Below, piece by piece: positions 1-51,120 of a stretch of 64,000 nt of DNA. This DNA is from Escherichia phage vB_EcoM-Pr121LW. Under the pieces are notes generated by a model. That model searched no databases. It saw only the letters and a program-made list of their open reading frames with translations, and was not told the DNA's origin. Both the position numbers and the translations under genes were made by a program. How positions within the stretch are numbered: position 1 is the stretch's first letter; every line of letters begins with the position of its first letter. The stretch lies in the sequence record MH752840.1; one strand, written 5' to 3'.

Positions 1-228
1 AAGTGCAGCATTTTCTTGGGCACACGTTTTAACGGTTTTTAGATCAGAGCTTTCAGCTTTAGGTAGATTAAGCTCCCACCAACCCAACCAGTAAAGCTCT
101 GATTCCGACAGCTGCTCAGATTCAGACTTCCGATACAAGGCTTGCATACCTCTGATGATATCGTCCAAAGGTGTATCGAATACAAAAGCTGTCTTATCAA
201 ATTTCTCTTTTACAGGTTTCTTAGCCAT
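1..228 (-). CDS. hypothetical protein, partial (3' end lies beyond window start)
   Basis: Minus-strand ATG at 228-226 overlaps the stop of the upstream gene (ATGGCTAA); frame stays open to position 1. Confidence 0.3.
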   Translation of the reverse strand, partial: MAKKPVKEKFDKTAFVFDTPLDDIIRGMQALYRKSESEQLSESELYWLGWWELNLPKAESSDLKTVKTCAQENAAL

Positions 229-685
229 CAAGGTAACCCTCTATCCACGAAAAGTCAGTCTTCCATTCTGGAACTTTACTAAGCTCACGCCACTCTGCAA
301 AGCAGTCTCGGTAATAGGCCTCCGCCATACCCTTGGTGATCTTATTCACCTTAGCTAACTGACTAACTGCCTGAGCATACTTCCCACGGATATTTGCTAA
401 ACCAGGATGCACCGATGTGTGACAATCCGGGCACAACGCTATCAGTCCGACAAGCCGGATCACTCCCTCTTCGAAAGTGTAAAGTTCATGACACTCAACT
501 GGATGTTTGCTGCCTTTACCTCCGCACACCTCGCAAGTGTAGTTTGCTTCTCTGTAGCACTTCTTACGGATCTTATCCCACTCACTCTTCTTCACAGCGT
601 TTCGGAGGTTATTATACCAAGCTGTTTCTGGGATCAGTTGCACAATAAGCCTGCGTTCAGACTTCATTAAACGTCCGTCTTCCAC
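221..685 (-). CDS. HNH-like zinc-binding nuclease-family protein
   Basis: 154-aa ORF with paired Cys/His motifs (CEVCGG ... ECHELY ... CPDCH) typical of HNH/zinc-ribbon nucleases. Confidence 0.4.
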   Translation of the reverse strand: MEDGRLMKSERRLIVQLIPETAWYNNLRNAVKKSEWDKIRKKCYREANYTCEVCGGKGSKHPVECHELYTFEEGVIRLVGLIALCPDCHTSVHPGLANIRGKYAQAVSQLAKVNKITKGMAEAYYRDCFAEWRELSKVPEWKTDFSWIEGYLDG

Positions 686-694
686 GTATTCTCC

Positions 695-901
695 TCATTC
701 AAAGAAATGGGTGCGAGGACAAGATCCAGCCTCGCCTTGTTTCACAAGCTCGTAGAGCTCACCTTGACTTGTCTCATAAAGGCAAATACGTTTACCATTG
801 TCCCGATATACATCGACAAGATACGCTGTTTCACCTGCAAACACGACACCACAGGCCAGACATGCTGCCATGAACAAAATTGCCAACAGAAAATCTTTCA
901 T
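695..901 (-). CDS. small secreted protein or lipoprotein
   Basis: 68-aa ORF with AGGAGGG RBS; N-terminal signal peptide LLAILFMAACLAC with possible lipobox Cys; chosen over the overlapping plus-strand ORF 707-907. Confidence 0.45.
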   Translation of the reverse strand: MKDFLLAILFMAACLACGVVFAGETAYLVDVYRDNGKRICLYETSQGELYELVKQGEAGSCPRTHFFE

Positions 902-964: not shown

Positions 965-1435
965 TCAATCAAGGACAACACCGCCTGCCTTTTTAAACAC
1001 CTCGATCAACTTCTCGATCTTCTGTTCATGCTGACCATATCCAGCACCAGGTAACGAAGCCCAGCGGGAACGGCATTTATGGATAGCCTCGTGGATACGC
1101 CCTTCGTCAATGTCGGCGAGAGCCTTGCACTCACGGATAAGTTGCAACGCAATCTTGTCCTGACTGGCAGGGCCAAAATCTGGCAATCCTAACTGTTCCA
1201 TGTAGTGTTTAGCAAACTTCTCCAAAACCTGGTAACGACCAGCAGCGGAGGAGGTAAGTTTAGCATTTAGCTTAACGTACACACCTGGATGCTTGCTGTA
1301 ATCGCTAAACAGCTTGCCACCAACTATGACATCGTATCCACGATCCTTAGTGGGTTGCCTACCATTATCTGTGCCTTCCGAATATGCGATCATATCCAAG
1401 AAAGCTTTTCGTTGAACATTTTTATCAAGTTTCAT
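965..1435 (-). CDS. endolysin, lambda R-like lytic transglycosylase
   Basis: 156 aa; near-colinear match to lambda R as I recall it (QRKAFLDMIAYSEGTDNGRQ, GYDVIVGG, RWASLPGAGYGQ). Confidence 0.85.
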   Translation of the reverse strand: MKLDKNVQRKAFLDMIAYSEGTDNGRQPTKDRGYDVIVGGKLFSDYSKHPGVYVKLNAKLTSSAAGRYQVLEKFAKHYMEQLGLPDFGPASQDKIALQLIRECKALADIDEGRIHEAIHKCRSRWASLPGAGYGQHEQKIEKLIEVFKKAGGVVLD

Positions 1436-3468: not shown

Positions 3469-4182
3469 TCAAATAGACTCTGTTACATCCTTGAAGCTCG
3501 AAGGCTTCATGATCTTACCTTTACTGTCAAGGAATATGATAACTTTATTACCGTTGTAGAACTCTTCCTTAGCAACAAAACCTTCGTAGCGACCACCAAA
3601 ACGACGCTCAAGATCTTTAATCTCCAACTCGATGAGTTGTTCAGCAGGCATATCTGCACTGGCACCGTGTGAATGCCGTAGATGGTTGATCCGTGCAAAC
3701 TTACTGTCATTAGATTTGAGAACCTTCCGCATCATCCCACACACATCGCCGCGAAGCTGGAACAGCAAAGCTGTTGACAACTCCGCTAAGCGGTAAGCTG
3801 ACGCTCTTTGCTTGGATGTGTTTTTCGCAGCGATCAGTGTATCATAGAACTCACCAATCTTGAACTTAAGACCTCGTGGATTATCAAACAGGTTTGACCA
3901 CTTTTCGTGATTGTCATTAACAAGATAGGCGGCATAACTTGTGACAACGTGAAGATCGCAGGCCTCTTTTAACAGGTGATCTCCACCATCACCTTTCTCC
4001 AGCTCTTCCAAAACCTCATTGAACTCTTCCTCAATGAAGCTAAGCTGTAATTCGAATGGTGTGTATGATTTTTTCACTTTAGCTGCCACACGGTTCCAGT
4101 TTTCCACCCAGTTGGCAGACCAAAGGTAGTTTTCAGGCTGAGACAGTTTTTCCAGGTTGTCGATCAGTTTAGTATTCAGCAT
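3469..4182 (-). CDS. MazG-like nucleotide pyrophosphohydrolase domain protein
   Basis: 237 aa; acidic EExxE ... ExxD helix motif (FIEEEFNEVLEELEKGDGGDHLLKEACDLH) resembling all-alpha NTP pyrophosphatases. Confidence 0.4.
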   Translation of the reverse strand: MLNTKLIDNLEKLSQPENYLWSANWVENWNRVAAKVKKSYTPFELQLSFIEEEFNEVLEELEKGDGGDHLLKEACDLHVVTSYAAYLVNDNHEKWSNLFDNPRGLKFKIGEFYDTLIAAKNTSKQRASAYRLAELSTALLFQLRGDVCGMMRKVLKSNDSKFARINHLRHSHGASADMPAEQLIELEIKDLERRFGGRYEGFVAKEEFYNGNKVIIFLDSKGKIMKPSSFKDVTESI

Positions 4183-4195
4183 TAAAGGTCTCCTT

Positions 4196-4957
4196 TTAAA
4201 GTTCCATAAAGTTTTCTACAGTTTCAATAAATGCTTTATCAGAGAAAGCGTCAACAGCACCGTTAAACCATACAGGGATCCCGCGATCCTCATATTGATA
4301 AAGGTCGCTACGTGAAATGCCACTTCCATCTGCACTCTGCGAGTCATACTTGTTTACAATCAGCAGTTTTGTGCCTTTACAAGTAGCAGGAAACAATTCC
4401 CAGTTAAAATTAATAACTGTGTTAGAACAACCTACCAGGATCACCATATCATTGCTTGTGAGAGATGTCAACAGGTCATACATGTCTGTATACTTAGGAG
4501 CAACCTCACCGAAGAACACTACATTAGGCTTAACCCAGGTATACTTGCCTGTATCTACCTCCGTATATCCGATATTTTTAATTACATCGTTACCTTCAGC
4601 ATCTTCGTAGGTGATTTCAGGCAAATACCCGTGGACATGTAAAATATCTTCATGTTTTACACCAGCACGCTCCAGCAAATCATCTACATTGGTGGTAAGG
4701 TTGATCACACGACCAGACCAGCGGGAATACCACTCAGCGATCCGAAGATGTGCAAGGTTAGGATCAACACTGCCCAGAGCTACACGACGTGCATTGTAAA
4801 AGTCATGCACCTTATAGTAGTTCTTGGCAAAGGTGTGGATGTTGCACACCTCATCGATGCTGAAATTCTCCCACATTGCAGTGCTACCAGATCGGAAAGT
4901 GGGAATACCAGATTCAGCGCTCAAACCGGCACCGGAGATAATAATCAGTCGTCGCAT
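4196..4957 (-). CDS. Sir2-family NAD-dependent protein (sirtuin-like)
   Basis: 253 aa; GAGLSAESGIPTFR, TTNVDDL..AG, HVHG and VVFFGE motifs; no CxxC zinc-ribbon pairs seen after the HG motif. Confidence 0.8.
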   Translation of the reverse strand: MRRLIIISGAGLSAESGIPTFRSGSTAMWENFSIDEVCNIHTFAKNYYKVHDFYNARRVALGSVDPNLAHLRIAEWYSRWSGRVINLTTNVDDLLERAGVKHEDILHVHGYLPEITYEDAEGNDVIKNIGYTEVDTGKYTWVKPNVVFFGEVAPKYTDMYDLLTSLTSNDMVILVGCSNTVINFNWELFPATCKGTKLLIVNKYDSQSADGSGISRSDLYQYEDRGIPVWFNGAVDAFSDKAFIETVENFMEL

Positions 4958-10236: not shown

Positions 10237-10308
10237 GCCCTGTTAGCTTAGTGGATAAAGCAGCGGCCTTCTAAGCCGTTGACACTGGTTCGAGTCCAGT
10301 ACGGGGTG
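10237..10308 (+). tRNA. tRNA-Arg (anticodon TCT)
   Basis: Hand-folded cloverleaf: acceptor GCCCTGT/ACGGGGT with two G-U pairs, anticodon loop CTTCTAA, T-loop GGTTCGAGTCC, CCA encoded. Confidence 0.6.
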
Positions 10309-10442
10309 CCAAGTTCTTTTTAATGTAGCTTACTTTAGCAGAGTAAATCTTCGGCAAGTGGCGGTAACCACTTTTACCGATACCTCATAGTTAGTGGTGA
10401 GAACACTAGCTATTTTAAAAAGAATTTAAATATTAGTATTTA

Positions 10443-10527
10443 GGTGAGTTAATTCCGTAGGGGTAGCGGGGCAGACTGTAAATCTGTTATCATTGCGATT
10501 CGGGTGGTTCGACTCCATCACTCACCA
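10443..10527 (+). tRNA. tRNA-Tyr (anticodon GTA), long variable arm
   Basis: Anticodon arm GCAGACTGTAAATCTGT and variable arm resemble E. coli tRNA-Tyr; acceptor GGTGAGT/ACTCACC; CCA encoded. Confidence 0.65.
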
Positions 10528-10644
10528 CCAAATTTATATTTTTAAATGCATAAATTATACAGATAATGGCATTGATATTTATCGTCGTTTATACTAGTCA
10601 CTAACTGCTCGAAAATCAGTGTCATTATCAGTATTGTTTATAAA

Positions 10645-10732
10645 AGAGGGTAGGGAGCAATGGTGCTCAAGCGGTCTTGAAAACCGTCCCGTTGAGGATG
10701 ACTCGATGATGGTTCGATTCCATTACCCTCTG
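10645..10732 (+). tRNA. tRNA-Ser (anticodon TGA), long variable arm
   Basis: Acceptor AGAGGGT/ACCCTCT, anticodon loop CTTGAAA, T-loop GGTTCGATTCC, CCA encoded. Confidence 0.6.
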
Positions 10733-10833
10733 CCATATTGTTGACCTTGTAATTAAGCGAAAGCCGGAAGCAGAACCGGATTATCAAATGTTACAGTCGT
10801 CATCGCCGACTAGCAACATTGTCAACATACTGA

Positions 10834-10930
10834 GCTAGGTAAGCCCTTTGGCAAGGGCGAGGATTTTTAATCCTGAAAATAGACGAGGTAGTCGTTGAAT
10901 ACATAGGTGGTTCGATTCCACCACCTAGCA
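10834..10930 (+). tRNA. atypical tRNA-like element (anticodon possibly TTT; about 29-nt variable region)
   Basis: Acceptor GCTAGGT/ACCTAGC, D-arm GCCC..GGGC and T-arm GGTGGTTCGATTCCACC fold, but anticodon stem is 4 bp plus a mismatch and total length about 97 nt. Confidence 0.3.
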
Positions 10931-10937
10931 CCTTTTT

Positions 10938-11010
10938 GCTGATGTAGCACAATTGGTAGTGCAATTGATTTGTAATCAATAGGTTGCAGGTTCAAGTCCT
11001 GCCATCAGCA
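10938..11010 (+). tRNA. tRNA-Thr (anticodon TGT)
   Basis: Acceptor GCTGATG/CATCAGC, D-stem GCAC/GTGC, anticodon arm ATTGA-TTTGTAA-TCAAT, T-arm GCAGG-TTCAAGT-CCTGC, CCA encoded. Confidence 0.7.
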
Positions 11011-11014
11011 CCAT

Positions 11015-11086
11015 GGCCCTGTAGCTGGAAGGTTCAAGCAAGCGACTCATAATCGCCAGACGGTGGTTCAATTCCACCCAGGGCCA
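11015..11086 (+). tRNA. tRNA-Met or Ile2 (anticodon CAT)
   Basis: Acceptor GGCCCTG/CAGGGCC, anticodon loop CTCATAA, T-loop GGTTCAATTCC, CCA encoded. Confidence 0.65.
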
Positions 11087-11100
11087 CCAAATAGTAAATA

Positions 11101-11174
11101 CTCCGCGTAGCTCAGCTTGGTAGAGCGCCTGATTTGGGATCAGGAGGTCGAGTGTTCGAATCACTCCGTGGAGA
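11101..11174 (+). tRNA. tRNA-Pro (anticodon TGG)
   Basis: Acceptor CTCCGCG/CGTGGAG, anticodon arm CCTGA-TTTGGGA-TCAGG, T-loop GTTCGAATC, CCA encoded. Confidence 0.7.
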
Positions 11175-11223
11175 CCACTTTCAGTTATACTTTAAACATA
11201 TACACACAAAAGGAACCTTTAAA

Positions 11224-11493
11224 ATGTATACACTTAAAATTGTAGAGCGTGTAAATCCAACAAATACTGTAGATTTTCGTGACGATTTCAATCCTCTGGC
11301 TGTAAATCTTCGAGAGTCATATCATGAACTCAGCTGCGATGCAGTGGTGGTCTTTTTTGAAGACAACTCTGAAGGGGCGGTAGCTTGTGTTGTTGATAGT
11401 GAGCAGAAGTTTTATATTTACAGAGATGTAGATGCATACTTGATGAATGAAAATGCAGTTACTGTTAGAATCATCCACCGAGTGCCTCGATAA
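11224..11493 (+). CDS. hypothetical protein
   Basis: Start moved to ATG 11224 behind AAGGAA so that the CDS no longer overlaps tRNA-Pro. Confidence 0.45.
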   Translation: MYTLKIVERVNPTNTVDFRDDFNPLAVNLRESYHELSCDAVVVFFEDNSEGAVACVVDSEQKFYIYRDVDAYLMNENAVTVRIIHRVPR

Positions 11494-11543
11494 GTATTAG
11501 TCTCCTTTTAGTTAGTTTCGATCTATTTAGGTTACTAAATTTT

Positions 11544-11580
11544 AACCCGCCCCGTTAGCTGTATAGCTGCGGGGTTTTTT
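11544..11580 (+). terminator. rho-independent terminator
   Basis: GC stem CCCGC...GCGGG around an AGCTGTATAGCT palindrome followed by a T-run. Confidence 0.5.
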
Positions 11581-11598
11581 CGTTTCTGGAGCCTTAAA

Positions 11599-11997
11599 AT
11601 GATTTCAGGTTTAACATGGCTTAGTAGGTATAGAGGGATCATAAAAGGTTTAGTTTTTGCAGCGGCTATAGGTACAGCTTATCTTGGGGCCGTGTATTGG
11701 TTTAACTCTAAGCTTAATGATGCCTACCAAGAGGGTGTGTCAGCAACAGAGTTAAAGTGGGAACGGATCCTTGATCAGCAACAAAAGCAGGCCGACAAAA
11801 TTAAAATGGGCCACGCAGAGGAGGTTAAAAACCTTGAAAAATCTCTTTCTGATCTGCAGGATAAATTAAATATAGCTGAGAGGGCAGGTAGAGAAAAGCA
11901 GATTATCTACCTCCAATCACCTGAAGGTAAGAAGTCAACACTCCCTGATCAGCTTATAGATATTTATAATGAGAGTATCAATCAGGAGGATCTATGA
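11599..11997 (+). CDS. i-spanin (Rz-like)
   Basis: N-terminal transmembrane segment GLVFAAAIGTAYLGAVYWF followed by a coiled-coil periplasmic domain. Confidence 0.55.
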   Translation: MISGLTWLSRYRGIIKGLVFAAAIGTAYLGAVYWFNSKLNDAYQEGVSATELKWERILDQQQKQADKIKMGHAEEVKNLEKSLSDLQDKLNIAERAGREKQIIYLQSPEGKKSTLPDQLIDIYNESINQEDL

Positions 11998-12281
11998 GAG
12001 TTGCTGCACTGTTTATTGTGTGCTTTTTATTATGCGGGTGTGCAACCAGCGTTGAGAGAGAATACAAGATTGACCCTCCTGATGTAGGAAGGTTGATTGT
12101 TAAACCCCCGGAAGGTGCCATGAAACCACCTGCTAAAGCTATGCCTTTGAAGAAAGGTGCGCCAGATGCAGTGAATTCTGGCATTATGAGGGATAATAAT
12201 CTGTCTTGTAGCAATGATAGAGCTAAATTGATCATTTTGCAAGACTATATTAGAACACTGTTTCCAAAGGAGAGAGGTTAA
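11994..12281 (+). CDS. o-spanin (Rz1-like outer-membrane lipoprotein)
   Basis: Signal peptide with lipobox-like FLLCGC, proline-rich mature region; overlaps i-spanin stop; AGGAGG RBS. Confidence 0.55.
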   Translation: MRVAALFIVCFLLCGCATSVEREYKIDPPDVGRLIVKPPEGAMKPPAKAMPLKKGAPDAVNSGIMRDNNLSCSNDRAKLIILQDYIRTLFPKERG

Positions 12282-12706
12282 TGTCTAAGATTTACGGACC
12301 GTGTTCTGAAAAGCAGAAGATGATCCTCGAAAACGATGCAGATATTTTGGTAATCGGCGGTGCCGCAGGGTCTGGCAAGTCGTTCCTCTTGCAGTTGATG
12401 CCGCTTAAAATTATCGATGACCCCCACAGCTCTGTGGTTATGTTCCGAAGAACAACCCCACAGTTGGAAGGTGAGGGTGGACTATGGCCTAAAGCAGTAG
12501 CTATTTATAGCGATCTGCCTGAAAACATTAAGCCAAAGTTCAGAGAGAAGGATCATAAGTTCATTTTTCCACGGTTTGATCCGAACACTGGCAAGTGGGA
12601 TAGAAGCAAAAAGGGAGCTGTTGTAAAATACTGCCACATGGAGTATGTACAAGATAAGCTTAACCATCAAGGGCTTGAGTACACCATGGTTTGCTTCGAT
12701 GAGGGT
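12281..12706 (+). CDS. terL: terminase large subunit, exon 1 (ATPase domain)
   Basis: Walker A GGAAGSGKS, Walker B-like MVCFDE; ORF stops at TAA 12707-12709, taken as the first intron codon. Confidence 0.7.
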
Positions 12707-13023
12707 TAATTTGTAGCTCTCGTAAAACCTCCCTAATTGCGGGGAAATCTTTACTATTAATACCACCAACCTGTCATGGTAACATGATAGAGGCTTCGAA
12801 GAGAGATCGAAGGTATGGTAACAGTGTGTTAATTTAGATAATCCGCAGCGAAGCATCCGAGAGGATGAACGTTCAACGACTAGTCGAAAGACGTAGAATC
12901 AAGCGATTCGAAACGGGAGGGTAAGCGGTTGTTGTCGCTTATAAGATATAGTCTGGTCTGCATGGAGACATGCAGCTGCCTGAAAAATGGCGGGGCAAGA
13001 CTAGCGACCTTGCCCGAACATAG
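12707..13023 (+). ncRNA. group I self-splicing intron (no internal ORF); boundaries approximate
   Basis: Conserved core motifs GTTCAACGACTAGTCG (12871-12886) and AAGATATAGTC (12943-12953); splits terL; 5' exon ends in U, intron ends in G. Confidence 0.6.
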
Positions 13024-14148
13024 ACGACACAATTCGAATGGGAGCAGATAGACTATCTGATGTCTCGTCTGCGATCTCAGTCAAAGTATCCATCAAGGAT
13101 GGTTATCAGCTGTAACCCTGATTCAGAACACATGCTTGCCAAACTGGTTAGATGGTGGTTGGACGATGAAGGGTATCCAGATCCGGAGAAATGTGGTAAG
13201 AAAAGATATTTTATCCGACGCGACGGTGAATTTATTTGGGGGGACTCTAAGGAGGAGTTGATAGAGAAATACACCACGGTTAACGGACTGGGTGTAGAGA
13301 TCAAGCCAAGACCGTTGTCATTCTCGTTCATAGGCGCAACAATATTCGATAATCCTGTCTGTTTGAGAGACAACCCAGAATACCTTGCTTTCCTCGAAGG
13401 TCTACCAGAGCTGGAAAAAGCTCAGCTTCTCCATGGTAACTGGTTTGCAAAGCCTGAGGGTGCAAACTATTTTCAAAGATCTTTCCTTCGTGATGCCGAT
13501 AGAGTACCCCTTGGATCAGTATCTTGCAGGGCATGGGATAAGGCAGGAACCGAGAGAACTTCTGGCAATAAATTTCCTGACTTTACTGCCAGTATTAAGG
13601 TAAGTAAAGATAGCGACGGCTTTTATTACCTGTCAGGGGATTATTGTCCTGAAAACGTGGATGACGGGAGGTATTCCACAGGTCTGGAAGGCAAGTTCTG
13701 TAAAAAGGCTGGTGAACGAGATGTGATCATCAGGAAACAGGCGCAGTTTGATGGTGATGATTGCATAATCGTATTCTCTGTGGACCCTGGTCAGGCAGGT
13801 AAGAGTGAGTTCTTAACCTCATCCAGATCCTTGCTCGCAGAAGGGTTCAGGGTTGAAGAAGACCCAATGCCTTCCAACAAGTCTAAACTGACAAGGTTCT
13901 CACCTTTTGCCAATCTTGCCCAACAAGGGATGGTGAGGATTGTAAAATCCAGTTTCCATCCTGATACTCTGGAAGCATTTCTGACCGAACTTGAAAAATT
14001 CAACGGGGAAAGATCAACATTTAACAGAAAAGACGACTGGGCTGACTGTGTAGCTTCTGCAATTAATTTCCTGGAGAAAGAGGAGGTAGCACTTCCTTGT
14101 GTGATTCCATCAATCTCATCACCTTCTATGTTCAAGCGTTTTATCTAG
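13024..14148 (+). CDS. terL: terminase large subunit, exon 2 (nuclease domain)
   Basis: Frame opens at 13024 right after an in-frame TAG; encodes TTQFEWEQIDYLMSRLRS... continuing the TerL fold with acidic nuclease motifs (DPGQAGKSEF, DDWADC). Confidence 0.65.
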   Translation, partial: TTQFEWEQIDYLMSRLRSQSKYPSRMVISCNPDSEHMLAKLVRWWLDDEGYPDPEKCGKKRYFIRRDGEFIWGDSKEELIEKYTTVNGLGVEIKPRPLSFSFIGATIFDNPVCLRDNPEYLAFLEGLPELEKAQLLHGNWFAKPEGANYFQRSFLRDADRVPLGSVSCRAWDKAGTERTSGNKFPDFTASIKVSKDSDGFYYLSGDYCPENVDDGRYSTGLEGKFCKKAGERDVIIRKQAQFDGDDCIIVFSVDPGQAGKSEFLTSSRSLLAEGFRVEEDPMPSNKSKLTRFSPFANLAQQGMVRIVKSSFHPDTLEAFLTELEKFNGERSTFNRKDDWADCVASAINFLEKEEVALPCVIPSISSPSMFKRFI

Positions 14149-14151
14149 GTG

Positions 14152-14180
14152 TTGCCAATCTTAATTAGATGTGGTAGAAT
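14152..14180 (+). promoter_or_regulatory. sigma70-like promoter (TTGCCA-N17-TAGAAT)
   Basis: Consensus-like hexamers upstream of the portal gene. Confidence 0.4.
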
Positions 14181-14250
14181 AGATTAATCGGAGATACTAG
14201 CCCTCTAACACGAGGGCTATTTTGTTATACTGTTTTGAGGGGTAAAGCTT

Positions 14251-15807
14251 GTGTCCAAAAAGAACCGCAGGAAACACAACGCCACAGCCAAAACTGTGAA
14301 TAAATCTGGGAACGCAGGCGCACCAACTCATAATGTTCGTATGAGTGAGATCGGTTCTGGCGCACTTTCCCAAATTATGGCAGAATCGCAATCTATGATG
14401 GTTGAGGAATTGCGTTGGCCTCAGCTGATTGCCACAGTGGAGACTATGAAATGTGATTCCACAGTTGCTACTGCCTTAGATACAAAATACGTTTTCATCA
14501 CGAAAGCATTTAATGATTTTAAGATCCTTTATAATGTTAAAAGTGAAGACTCTAAGAAAGCTGCCGAGCTTATAGAGTATTCTTTGCGTAATTTGGCAAA
14601 CCAACAAACCCTTCGGGATATTGCAAGAAGCGCAGCTACCTTTAACGAGTATGGTTTTTCACTGTTTGAGAAAGTATACCGCAGAGAGAAAGAAGGTAAA
14701 TATGCTGGGATGCTTCTTATTGATAAAATTGCATTCCGACCTCAGGCCAGTCTGTCTAGATCAGAGCCGTTTGTCTTTGACAAGAATAGTAGAACGCTGA
14801 CAGGTATTTATCAGTCACCTAATGCATTTCTAAACACTCAGAATGCACGCTGGGCTGGACCTCTTGCTGCAATGCCTTCAAAAGGCTTTAATGAGCCTGA
14901 AATTTTCATCCCTGCTAAAAAGCTTATGCTCATGACCCTGTCAGGAACAGAATCTAACCCTGCAGGTGTGTCACCTATGATAGGTTGCTACAGATCTTTC
15001 CGTGAGAAAGTTCTGATTGAAAACCTTGAGGTTGTTGGCTGTTCCAAAGACCTTGGTGGTGTACTTGAGCTGAAAATTCCTTCCAATATTTTGAACAAGG
15101 CCAGCATTGACCCGAATTCAATGGAAGGGAGAATGGTTGCAGATCTTATGCTTGACGCAGCAAACGCCCATAGTGGTGAGCAAAGTTTCTTTATACTTCC
15201 GTCTGATAGAGATAAGTCTGGTAAAGAGCTTTACTCCATGACCCTGAAGGGGGTTGACGGTATGGGTAAGCAGTATTCCACTAAAGATTTGATTGATGCC
15301 CGTAAGAAGGCGATTCTTGACCGTTTCGGTGCTGGCTTTATTAACCTCGGTAACGATAACGTTGGATCCTTCTCTCTGTCTGAGTCAAAACAGTCTATCC
15401 ATGGTCATTTTGTTCAGCGTGATATAGATATTATCACTGAAGCCTTCAATAAAGATCTTATTCCACAGCTTCTGGCATTGAATGGTATCATCCTTGAAGA
15501 TGATGATATGCCTAAACTGAAACCTGGTCTGATTGAAGAGGTGGACATGGAGAGCTTCTCCAAGTTTGTCCAGAGGATCGGTGCTGTAGGTTACTTGCCA
15601 AAAACTCCTGCAGTAATTAATAAGATTCTTGAAGTAGGTGGGTTTGATGAAAGATTTGACGAGGACATGGATCAGGAAGAGCTGATGAAGCTCTTGGGCC
15701 AGGACATCAGTAGAGCTGGTGATGGAATGGCTGCAGGATCCACTGGTAACGGCACTTCTAAGATGTCATCAACCAGAGATAATTCCATATCCAACATGGA
15801 AAATTAA
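14251..15807 (+). CDS. portal protein
   Basis: 518-aa ORF immediately downstream of terL; GTG start after a purine-rich RBS; call rests on size and synteny. Confidence 0.6.
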   Translation: MSKKNRRKHNATAKTVNKSGNAGAPTHNVRMSEIGSGALSQIMAESQSMMVEELRWPQLIATVETMKCDSTVATALDTKYVFITKAFNDFKILYNVKSEDSKKAAELIEYSLRNLANQQTLRDIARSAATFNEYGFSLFEKVYRREKEGKYAGMLLIDKIAFRPQASLSRSEPFVFDKNSRTLTGIYQSPNAFLNTQNARWAGPLAAMPSKGFNEPEIFIPAKKLMLMTLSGTESNPAGVSPMIGCYRSFREKVLIENLEVVGCSKDLGGVLELKIPSNILNKASIDPNSMEGRMVADLMLDAANAHSGEQSFFILPSDRDKSGKELYSMTLKGVDGMGKQYSTKDLIDARKKAILDRFGAGFINLGNDNVGSFSLSESKQSIHGHFVQRDIDIITEAFNKDLIPQLLALNGIILEDDDMPKLKPGLIEEVDMESFSKFVQRIGAVGYLPKTPAVINKILEVGGFDERFDEDMDQEELMKLLGQDISRAGDGMAAGSTGNGTSKMSSTRDNSISNMEN

Positions 15808-49394: not shown

Positions 49395-49709
49395 GTGGAG
49401 TTGGATTTGGCGGCATTGTACGGTATCTGCATGGGTACCGTTGTCCCGATCTGTGTATGGGCTTTCAACCAGTGGCACACCAAATGGAAAGGCATTTCCA
49501 AGAGGTTGGATGAACTGGAGAAAGACCTCATCTTAGTGAAAAACAGTATGGTTACAAAAGATAAACTTGATTCCGTTATCGAGACCCGGTTAAGCAAGCT
49601 AGAGGCCGATATTAACGACCTTAAGCAGGATGTCAGGACAGATGTCTCCGGTATCCGAGCTGATGTACAAAAGATTTTGCACATGCTCGTAGAGCATAGT
49701 AAAAGGTAA
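49395..49709 (+). CDS. small membrane protein with coiled coil
   Basis: 104 aa, GTG start behind GAGGAGG; N-terminal hydrophobic segment LAALYGICMGTVVPICVWAF. Confidence 0.4.
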   Translation: MELDLAALYGICMGTVVPICVWAFNQWHTKWKGISKRLDELEKDLILVKNSMVTKDKLDSVIETRLSKLEADINDLKQDVRTDVSGIRADVQKILHMLVEHSKR

Positions 49710-49768: not shown

Positions 49769-49798
49769 AGTCCTAAGGAATTTTCTCAGGAGAACGTG

Positions 49799-50842
49799 AT
49801 GACTAAACCAGTTATCCCTCTTGATATTTGGGCCAATCAGGATGTTGTGCTTGAAAATACGGGAGAATTGAATAAGTCCCAACCAAAAAAAGAAGAGAGA
49901 CTGAAAGGTTGGGATATGACACAAAGAGTGGCATGTGAAGTTGTTAACTTTGAACTTCACATGCTTTCTGCGTGGTTAAAGCATTTAACAGAAGATGTTG
50001 TCCCAGGATGGGATAATAGATTCTTAAGGGTCACTAATAATCTGGCAGACGTTCCAGACAAAGCTGCTGCACGTCAAGTTCTCAATGTATACTCGCCTGA
50101 AGAAATGGATGACCTTTATGTTGACAAGGCTGGAGACACAATGATCCAGACTCAAACTTTAGGTCTTCAAAGAATCGAGTTTGCATCCGCGTCAACAGAC
50201 AATGCGGCGATATACACCACCATAACTTCAGACAAGACGATGATGGATTTCTGGATTATGGACAACATCGGTGGTGCTGACGGCACAGACCTTGATGATC
50301 CCTCTCACCAAATAGACGGTTTCCGTTGGAGATTTCAACCTTCTGGTGGGCAGCCTGTGTTTTCAGCTATGAAGCTCAATGCTATAACTGCCAACCGTGC
50401 AAGACTGGCTATCCAAGGAAATCTTGAATGCAACGACGCAAAAAGTTCCTCTACAAATGCCAATGCAGCTACTATACCAAGAGCCACTGTTAATGGACAA
50501 CAATCCTGTGGAAGCGCTCAAATAGGTGGAAGAGTTGATTGCAACGATGAAACCGTCAGGGGCCAATATGCAACAGTTGGTGGAAGAAACGTGGTCCGCA
50601 GGGTAAATGGTAACAGCGCAGACGGTAGTGGTAACCTTACTATCCCTATGCCCAGCAGAGGGGTTGATGATGTGAGGATAGCAAACCGTTTCAAAACCAC
50701 CTACAGAGAGTCAAGAGTCTACCCTGGACATGTGATGTGCTCGGGTAACTACGCTTATAAACACCCTTATCAAGGTGATTACTGGACAGGTGCTATCCAA
50801 AAACTTGTAAATGGTCAATGGATCACTATATCTTATGCTTAA
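49799..50842 (+). CDS. tail fibre protein, second P2 gpH-like paralogue
   Basis: N-terminus PLDIWANQD and C-terminus GAIQKLVNGQWITISYA parallel the 47744 gene; start at ATG 49799 behind AGGAGA. Confidence 0.6.
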   Translation: MTKPVIPLDIWANQDVVLENTGELNKSQPKKEERLKGWDMTQRVACEVVNFELHMLSAWLKHLTEDVVPGWDNRFLRVTNNLADVPDKAAARQVLNVYSPEEMDDLYVDKAGDTMIQTQTLGLQRIEFASASTDNAAIYTTITSDKTMMDFWIMDNIGGADGTDLDDPSHQIDGFRWRFQPSGGQPVFSAMKLNAITANRARLAIQGNLECNDAKSSSTNANAATIPRATVNGQQSCGSAQIGGRVDCNDETVRGQYATVGGRNVVRRVNGNSADGSGNLTIPMPSRGVDDVRIANRFKTTYRESRVYPGHVMCSGNYAYKHPYQGDYWTGAIQKLVNGQWITISYA

Positions 50843-50853
50843 AAAGAGGGTAA

Positions 50854-51120
50854 ATGAAACTAACTCAGTTTTTATGGGGACTGGTTGCGGCATCTGATGA
50901 CCCTACGAAAGTGTCCCAATCTAAGCTATGGTCAAACATAGGTATGGCGGTGATGACTGGGGTGTTTATTCATATGGGGTATAATGATACGCTTCCTGAA
51001 TGGTATGCGTGGATATATGCGCCTTCGGTAGCTTGCCCCCAGCTTATTAGCAAATTCATCTCGCTCCGGTGGGGTTGCCAGCACCCTGACCACGTTAAAA
51101 ACGAAGAGCAAAAAGCTTAA
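50854..51120 (+). CDS. small membrane protein
   Basis: 88-aa ORF with two hydrophobic segments; behind an AGAGGG RBS. Confidence 0.4.
   Translation: MKLTQFLWGLVAASDDPTKVSQSKLWSNIGMAVMTGVFIHMGYNDTLPEWYAWIYAPSVACPQLISKFISLRWGCQHPDHVKNEEQKA

Follow-up and report, generated by a model that had tools for sequence, protein, structure and literature searches.

A probable two-component spanin pair beside the terminase gene and dispersed lysis genes in an rV5-like Escherichia phage

The gene pair upstream of terL

The window analyzed here is a 64,000-nucleotide stretch of Escherichia phage vB_EcoM-Pr121LW (MH752840.1). Matched against the annotated LL12 and rV5 genomes, it corresponds approximately to rV5 genes 12 to 91 and contains the entire head, tail and fibre block, along with a tRNA cluster and a portion of the nucleotide-metabolism arm. 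Over the whole of region 11100-14300, it shares 98.8% identity with Escherichia phage LL12 (MH491969), an rV5-like myophage of the genus Vequintavirus. Many other rV5-type coliphages are 97-98% identical to this region, and 107 records matched it with a query coverage of at least 80%. Some 18-21 GenBank records titled 'Campylobacter phage' (MG0656xx, host Campylobacter jejuni) are also 98-100% identical to this phage type; the C. jejuni host label of these records is probably wrong, or the preparations were contaminated.

The features around the large terminase gene (terL) are listed below.

11549..11581, plus strand: hairpin followed by a U-run, terminator-like by RNA folding, 18 nt upstream of the i-spanin start
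11599..11997, plus strand: i-spanin gene, 132 aa, ATG start (phrog_4297; LL12 gp66 'I-spanin')
11994..12281, plus strand: o-spanin gene, 95-aa precursor, ATG start (phrog_1267; LL12 gp65 'O-spanin')
12281..12706, plus strand: terL exon 1, ATPase N-terminus (Terminase_6N; phrog_9526 at 4.6e-76)
12707..13026, plus strand: group I intron in terL, 320 nt (Rfam RF00028, 84.1 bits, E 5.9e-21, at 12697-12975)
13027..14148, plus strand: terL exon 2, remaining ATPase and nuclease domain (phrog_979 at 4.7e-146; Terminase_6N, Terminase_6C)

An earlier note on this DNA, made from the sequence alone, had proposed an i-spanin-like and an o-spanin-like gene overlapping by four bases right upstream of terL, and the ORFs lie exactly as it claimed. 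The two spanin genes share an ATGA (4 nt), and the TAA stop codon of the o-spanin gene has one base in common with the ATG of terL (TAATG) at 12281. Kongari et al. classify an overlap of at most 8 bp as a 'separated' architecture (PMC6139136), and the pair therefore counts as separated by that criterion.

Family assignments agree with this reading. The i-spanin matches phrog_4297 ('Rz-like spanin') over its full length at 2.7e-48, with four further spanin PHROGs matching more weakly, and the o-spanin matches phrog_1267 (also 'Rz-like spanin') at 1.3e-22. Pfam and NCBIfam scans of both proteins returned no meaningful match, models being found in PHROGs only. RefSeq uses the name 'Rz-like spanin' for the orthologues in rV5, PVP-SE1, GAP31 and KNP2, and the i-spanin is the first gene of the BASEL Vequintavirus records. 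The original rV5 paper (2013) had listed ORF67 only as a 'membrane protein, 1 TMD' and left ORF66 unannotated, so the pair went unrecognized there. Kongari et al. (2018) subsequently listed an 'rv5' spanin family of 7 phages (PMC6139136), the LL12 paper named gp66/gp65 as spanins while identifying no holin (PMC6658697), and the CB7 paper placed the spanin pair of rV5, PVP-SE1 and CB7 next to terL, outside any lysis cassette. The i-spanin/o-spanin reading of the earlier note is thus shared by the LL12 GenBank annotation, the PHROG families and the literature. The feature is already annotated and published, and the literature describes its location apart from the endolysin as conserved among rV5-like phages.

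Hydropathy analysis located the N-terminal transmembrane segment that the earlier note had attributed to the i-spanin-like protein. A single hydrophobic stretch spans residues 14-32 (Kyte-Doolittle peak 1.8), and the rV5 orthologue is listed with '1 TMD' (TMHMM/Phobius). Basic residues (R10, R12, K16) lie before this transmembrane domain (TMD), while the flank after it is acidic or neutral, which by the positive-inside rule predicts an N-in/C-out (type II) topology. An AlphaFold2 model of moderate confidence (mean pLDDT 73.7), built with one sequence as input, contains helices at residues 5-105 and 117-127, separated by a break at about 106-116 (pLDDT below 50 at 104-113). As modelled, this TMD-helix-hinge-helix layout is that expected of an i-spanin. 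Of the coiled coil in the earlier note, the model recovers the long periplasmic helix. The protein encoded in the window has no cysteine.

The o-spanin precursor carries the N-terminus MRVAALFIVCFLLCGC, in which LFIVCFLLCGC satisfies a PROSITE-type lipobox rule (lipobox LCGC, Cys16, Ala at +2). With Ala at +2, the predicted lipoprotein lacks an inner-membrane retention signal, consistent with sorting to the outer membrane. The predicted mature protein of 80 residues contains 9 Pro (11%), so both the lipoprotein signal and the proline richness noted earlier are recovered. Beyond the lipobox there is one cysteine, C72, located 23 residues from the C-terminus (window ∼12207-12209). A unimolecular spanin of the T1 gp11 type was also considered and rejected, the 95-aa lipoprotein having no second hydrophobic segment.

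The terL gene that follows is split. Exon 1 ends at the Walker B motif (...FDEG), and the residues flanking the gap correspond to positions 129|130 of the uninterrupted PVP-SE1 TerL. No homing-endonuclease ORF lies inside the intron in the window. LL12 annotates terL as an 'intron-containing gene', and in rV5 the gene is in three pieces with an HNH gene, compared with two exons here; the split is therefore already known from these two annotations.

Upstream of the pair, the 11549-11581 hairpin has a predicted folding energy of -16.9 kcal/mol, with an interrupted 11-bp stem followed by UUUUUU. Because its z-score is only -1.5 and a consensus terminator scan made no call there, the evidence for a terminator is weak. 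The hairpin may separate a tRNA/gp67 unit from the spanin-terL unit.

The tRNA cluster itself occupies window positions 10237-11177, upstream of the spanin genes. One of its members, at 10834-10932, is 99 nt long with a 4-base anticodon (ARAGORN) and is labelled 'tRNA-Lys, isotype inconsistent' in LL12. A tRNA-Tyr at 10443-10527 was detected by Rfam only (39 bits), and the CAU tRNA at 11015-11089 is Met according to ARAGORN and Ile (AUA) according to the BASEL records. Between tRNA-Arg and tRNA-Tyr, the window carries 127 nt that are not present in LL12.

Conservation of the pair across related genera

The comparison was extended to related regions, including PVP-SE1 and GAP31 (Seunavirus), pEp_SNUABM_01 (Henunavirus), KNP2 (Mydovirus) and 13 IMG/VR contigs. 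The order i-spanin, o-spanin, terL is found in 19/19 related loci from Vequintavirus, Seunavirus, Henunavirus and Mydovirus. Across these 19 loci, spanin identity to the window falls to 29-45%, with the TerL N-terminus still at 60-63%.

ORF features were scored in the 16 of the 19 loci from which ORFs had been extracted. The lipobox cysteine is present in all 16 and none has Asp at +2; mature o-spanins are 79-82 aa long; the two spanin genes overlap by 4 nt in 15 loci, the remaining locus having an 8-nt overlap. None of the 16 i-spanins has a cysteine. In an alignment across five genera, G15 and C16 of the o-spanin are invariant and the KPP and P..P motifs are conserved. The combination of PHROG spanin matches, a gene order recurring in all 19 loci and the ORF features of the 16 argues against a chance pairing. 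On the basis of protein architecture and family curation, the two genes very probably encode the two-component spanin subunits of a Vequintavirus (rV5-like) myophage in the separated arrangement. No report of an experimental test of any rv5-family spanin was found in the literature.

Two features are confined to the Vequintavirus lineage. Outside this genus, the o-spanin gene is separated from terL by a spacer of ∼90-115 nt, which indicates that the stop/start coupling to terL is specific to Vequintavirus. Likewise, C72 of the o-spanin occurs only in Vequintavirus-type sequences, including a 73%-identical metagenomic relative, and is missing in 11 loci of other genera; it may be a lineage-specific gain. 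According to Kongari et al., ∼96% of two-component spanins have at least one periplasmic cysteine and ∼4% have none, and a homotypic intermolecular disulfide is proposed as near-universal in two-component spanins (PMC6139136). Since both subunits lack a periplasmic cysteine in Seunavirus, Mydovirus and Henunavirus, the pairs of these genera belong to the ∼4% class. In the window's pair, a homotypic disulfide could form only through Cys72 of the o-spanin, as the i-spanin has no cysteine.

The endolysin and the candidate holins

The other recognizable lysis gene of the window lies on the minus strand, together with a small neighbor.

965..1435, minus strand: endolysin (PDB 1AM7, lambda lysozyme, 3.4e-56 over residues 4-154; phrog_90 at 3.2e-56; LL12 gp90 'endolysin')
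695..901, minus strand: next gene downstream of the endolysin, encoding 68 aa with a signal or signal-anchor segment (hydropathy 2.79 over residues 4-20)

As the earlier note had stated, the sole recognizable endolysin is about 10 kb from the spanin genes on the opposite strand. The measured distance is 10.2 kb, and the 965-1435 product is the only peptidoglycan hydrolase recognized in the window. Ten tail and baseplate proteins encoded there have no recognizable wall hydrolase domain. By hydropathy, the endolysin has no hydrophobic, signal or SAR segment. An enzyme without a membrane segment would need a hole-forming holin.

The earlier note also held that no clear holin is adjacent to either the spanins or the endolysin. 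One correction to that note concerns the 68-aa signal or signal-anchor protein beside the endolysin, which had been left unmentioned. In this protein, Cys14 lies in a borderline lipobox and the C-terminal part is acidic, with two cysteines. It matches phrog_4641 and is nearly invariant in Vequintavirus, being at least 95% identical in 119/123 matching records; its rV5 counterpart, ORF 90, bears the note 'contains transmembrane domain'. The protein may be an accessory of lysis or may act in exclusion.

Several other genes in this arm were recorded. DrSchubert, a phage of the BASEL collection, carries a homing endonuclease insertion that separates its endolysin gene from the 68-aa gene. The window itself has an HNH endonuclease gene near the endolysin (221-685, minus strand; phrog_5200 at 4.5e-72), and two adjoining genes at 3469-4957 (minus strand) are Sir2-like in the LL12 annotation.

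Two small genes inside the fibre region had been put forward as holin candidates, and related membrane-protein genes occur in the sister genera.

49395..49709, plus strand: holin candidate of 104 aa (rV5 ORF31), between a tail-fibre assembly gene and a fibre gene (phrog_5345 at 1.1e-48)
50854..51120, plus strand: holin candidate of 88 aa (rV5 ORF29), between two fibre genes (phrog_1322 'membrane protein' at 2.7e-32)
Locus L024, 3249-4318, and locus L025, 2803-3876: membrane-protein trio of PVP-SE1/KNP2, with the phrog_7451 protein in the middle

The description of both candidates as small membrane proteins stands for the first and is doubtful for the second. The 49395 product has one N-terminal TMD, followed by positive charges and a helical, coiled-coil-like C-terminal part; '1 TMD' is also listed for its rV5 homologue, ORF31. 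The charges after the TMD predict an N-out/C-in topology, opposite to that of the i-spanin. The 50854 product is weakly hydrophobic, with no 19-residue window reaching a Kyte-Doolittle value of 1.2, and its rV5 homologue, ORF29, has no TMD by TMHMM/Phobius (rV5 Table S3).

That the holin or holins are the 49395 and/or 50854 products is unlikely, although some of the context is suggestive. Besides the clear TMD of the 49395 product, both genes are kept across the subfamily and neither product was found in rV5 virions by mass spectrometry. In PVP-SE1 and KNP2, the 104-aa and 88-aa homologues flank a 157-aa 4-TMD protein (phrog_7451), forming a membrane trio after the fibre-assembly gene; T4 gene t likewise follows gene 38. 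In the window, a fibre paralogue (49796-50842) takes the middle position of the trio instead of the 4-TMD protein, and the trio context would suit either lysis or the assembly of fibres. The constant linkage of the two genes to fibre genes fits fibre assembly equally well, however, and 37-50 kb separate them from the spanin and endolysin genes. Neither candidate has a holin family match in Pfam, PHROGs or NCBIfam. Family scans likewise gave no holin match for the 4-TMD protein of PVP-SE1/KNP2, the 695-901 product and rV5 ORF128/129/130. No holin label was found on homologues of either candidate among the records sampled (at most 60 per tblastn search, out of 358 and 223 matching records), and the 49-kb annotation of DrSchubert contains no holin. 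With the 50854 product also lacking a convincing TMD, the holin proposal of the earlier note is left unsupported.

A published candidate exists elsewhere in the rV5 genome. rV5 ORF129 (94,058-94,294) encodes 78 aa with two strong TMDs and a highly charged C-terminus (...KNIRKEKKESRDGDRT), and is located ∼22 kb beyond the endolysin, outside the window. For the rV5-type group, ORF129 is the only published holin candidate. The holin of the Vequintavirinae may instead be one of the small membrane proteins conserved behind the fibre-assembly gene, either the 49395 product or the sister-genus 4-TMD protein. This reading and a second one, in which rv5-family spanins can work without a homotypic disulfide, are both tentative and rather doubtful.

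In rV5, ORF129 directly follows ORF128 (174 aa), the two together occupying 93502-94294. The BASEL label 'putative glycosidase' for the ORF128 homologue was not adopted, as Pfam gives no match.

A second hydrolase, SleB-like (PF07486), is encoded by rV5 gene 2 beside rIIA, also outside the window. With this hydrolase and ORF129 at remote positions, the lysis genes are indeed scattered, as had been documented before; the dispersed cassette suggested by the earlier note, with spanins at terL and the endolysin 10.2 kb away, agrees with the literature. The KPP105 paper describes a phage with a clustered lysis cassette.

Proposed function and comparison with known spanin systems

The features, conservation and gene context described above come from the present analysis, and the following mechanism is modelled on lambda Rz/Rz1 and T4 PseT.3/PseT.2. 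The 132-aa protein would be anchored in the inner membrane, its helical domain extending into the periplasm. Lipidation of the 95-aa precursor at Cys16 and cleavage by signal peptidase II would be followed by Lol-dependent sorting to the outer membrane, because the +2 residue is Ala and not Asp. The two proteins would then contact each other by their C-terminal parts, spanning the periplasm through gaps in the peptidoglycan mesh. After a holin had opened the way and the soluble, lambda R-like endolysin had destroyed the wall, the spanin complexes would be free to collapse, and in doing so would fuse the inner and outer membranes and complete lysis.

The location of the genes is compatible with such a role. 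Judged from the sequence, translation of the pair is coupled to that of terL, and the three genes open the block that encodes packaging and head functions. The spanins would be made late alongside the virion proteins and would be harmless; as intact peptidoglycan holds them in check, linkage to the endolysin or holin is not required. The timing of lysis would then be set by the holin alone.

The same location raises the alternative of a membrane-associated accessory role in DNA packaging or head assembly, in which the pair might, for instance, be a stand-in for the missing small terminase. Both the slot directly upstream of terL, with its stop/start overlap, and the likeness of the long helix of the 132-aa protein to the coiled-coil core of small terminases fit this idea, and no terS is annotated in the inspected stretches of the LL12, rV5 and PVP-SE1 records. 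Small terminases, however, are soluble DNA-binding proteins, whereas the pair combines a 132-aa protein that begins with a strong TMD and a partner with an invariant lipobox. Neither protein matches a small-terminase PHROG or Pfam family, while five spanin PHROGs match the 132-aa protein. The coupling to terL is not conserved either, given the 90-115 nt spacer in the sister genera. On these grounds the small-terminase replacement was rejected, and a packaging role in general is very unlikely.

A role in superinfection exclusion or receptor masking, in the style of T5 Llp or the Cor lipoproteins, is also very unlikely. Small phage lipoproteins with an exclusion role are well established, and no lysis phenotype has been reported for rv5-family spanins. 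Exclusion lipoproteins, however, are typically early or lysogenic genes acting alone, whereas the o-spanin is always paired, i before o, with a type II protein whose periplasmic domain is long and helical, and the pair is located among late structural genes. Furthermore, the phage has no other spanin, and a Gram-negative host requires one in nearly all known cases (PMC6139136).

The main value of the two-component spanin assignment is correct annotation, and it shows that lysis genes need not cluster. Genome scans of rV5-like phages, a group of widely used therapeutic and biocontrol coliphages, should not expect spanins beside the endolysin.

The closest relatives of the pair are the members of the rv5 family: rV5 ORF67/ORF66 (rv5_gp068/gp067), LL12 gp66/gp65 and PVP-SE1 gp78/gp77. 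The window spanins share 95-99% identity with their LL12 and rV5 counterparts and have the same lengths, TMD, lipobox, 4-nt overlap and position upstream of terL. Apart from a few substitutions in the signal peptide, there is no difference of substance.

T4 PseT.3/PseT.2 are experimentally validated spanins that resemble the window pair in several respects. Both pairs are separated with a 4-nt overlap and are remote from the endolysin and holin genes (e and t in T4); in both, the i-spanin has no cysteine, cysteines occur in the o-spanin only, and the mature o-spanin is ∼80 aa long. The T4 o-spanin differs in having two essential cysteines, compared with the single C72 here, and pseT.3/pseT.2 are located among early and middle nucleotide-metabolism genes, whereas the window pair adjoins terL. 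Membership in the T4 family was rejected, as no sequence homology extends beyond the lipoprotein signal: in BLASTP, the i-spanins aligned at E 0.22 only and the o-spanins did not align at all, and hhalign aligned the o-spanins over the 21-residue signal/lipobox region only (probability 76%), with 0.5% for the i-spanins.

With lambda Rz/Rz1, the window pair shares the combination of a type II inner-membrane protein having helical periplasmic domains and a proline-rich outer-membrane lipoprotein, and the endolysin of the window is closely related to lambda R. In lambda, however, Rz1 is embedded in Rz in the +1 frame and the two genes close the S-R-Rz/Rz1 cassette, whereas the window genes are separated and lie apart from the endolysin. 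Lambda Rz also has two cysteines, compared with none in the window i-spanin. By architecture, the window pair is Rz/Rz1- or PseT.3/PseT.2-like, yet, as judged from sequence comparison, it is a separate family.

A section of the CB7 paper, citing Summer et al. 2007, describes a similar arrangement in SP6 and Vibrio phage VP4, with spanins beside the large terminase gene. These are podophages of unrelated groups, and in the table of Kongari et al. (PMC6139136) they are assigned to other spanin families.
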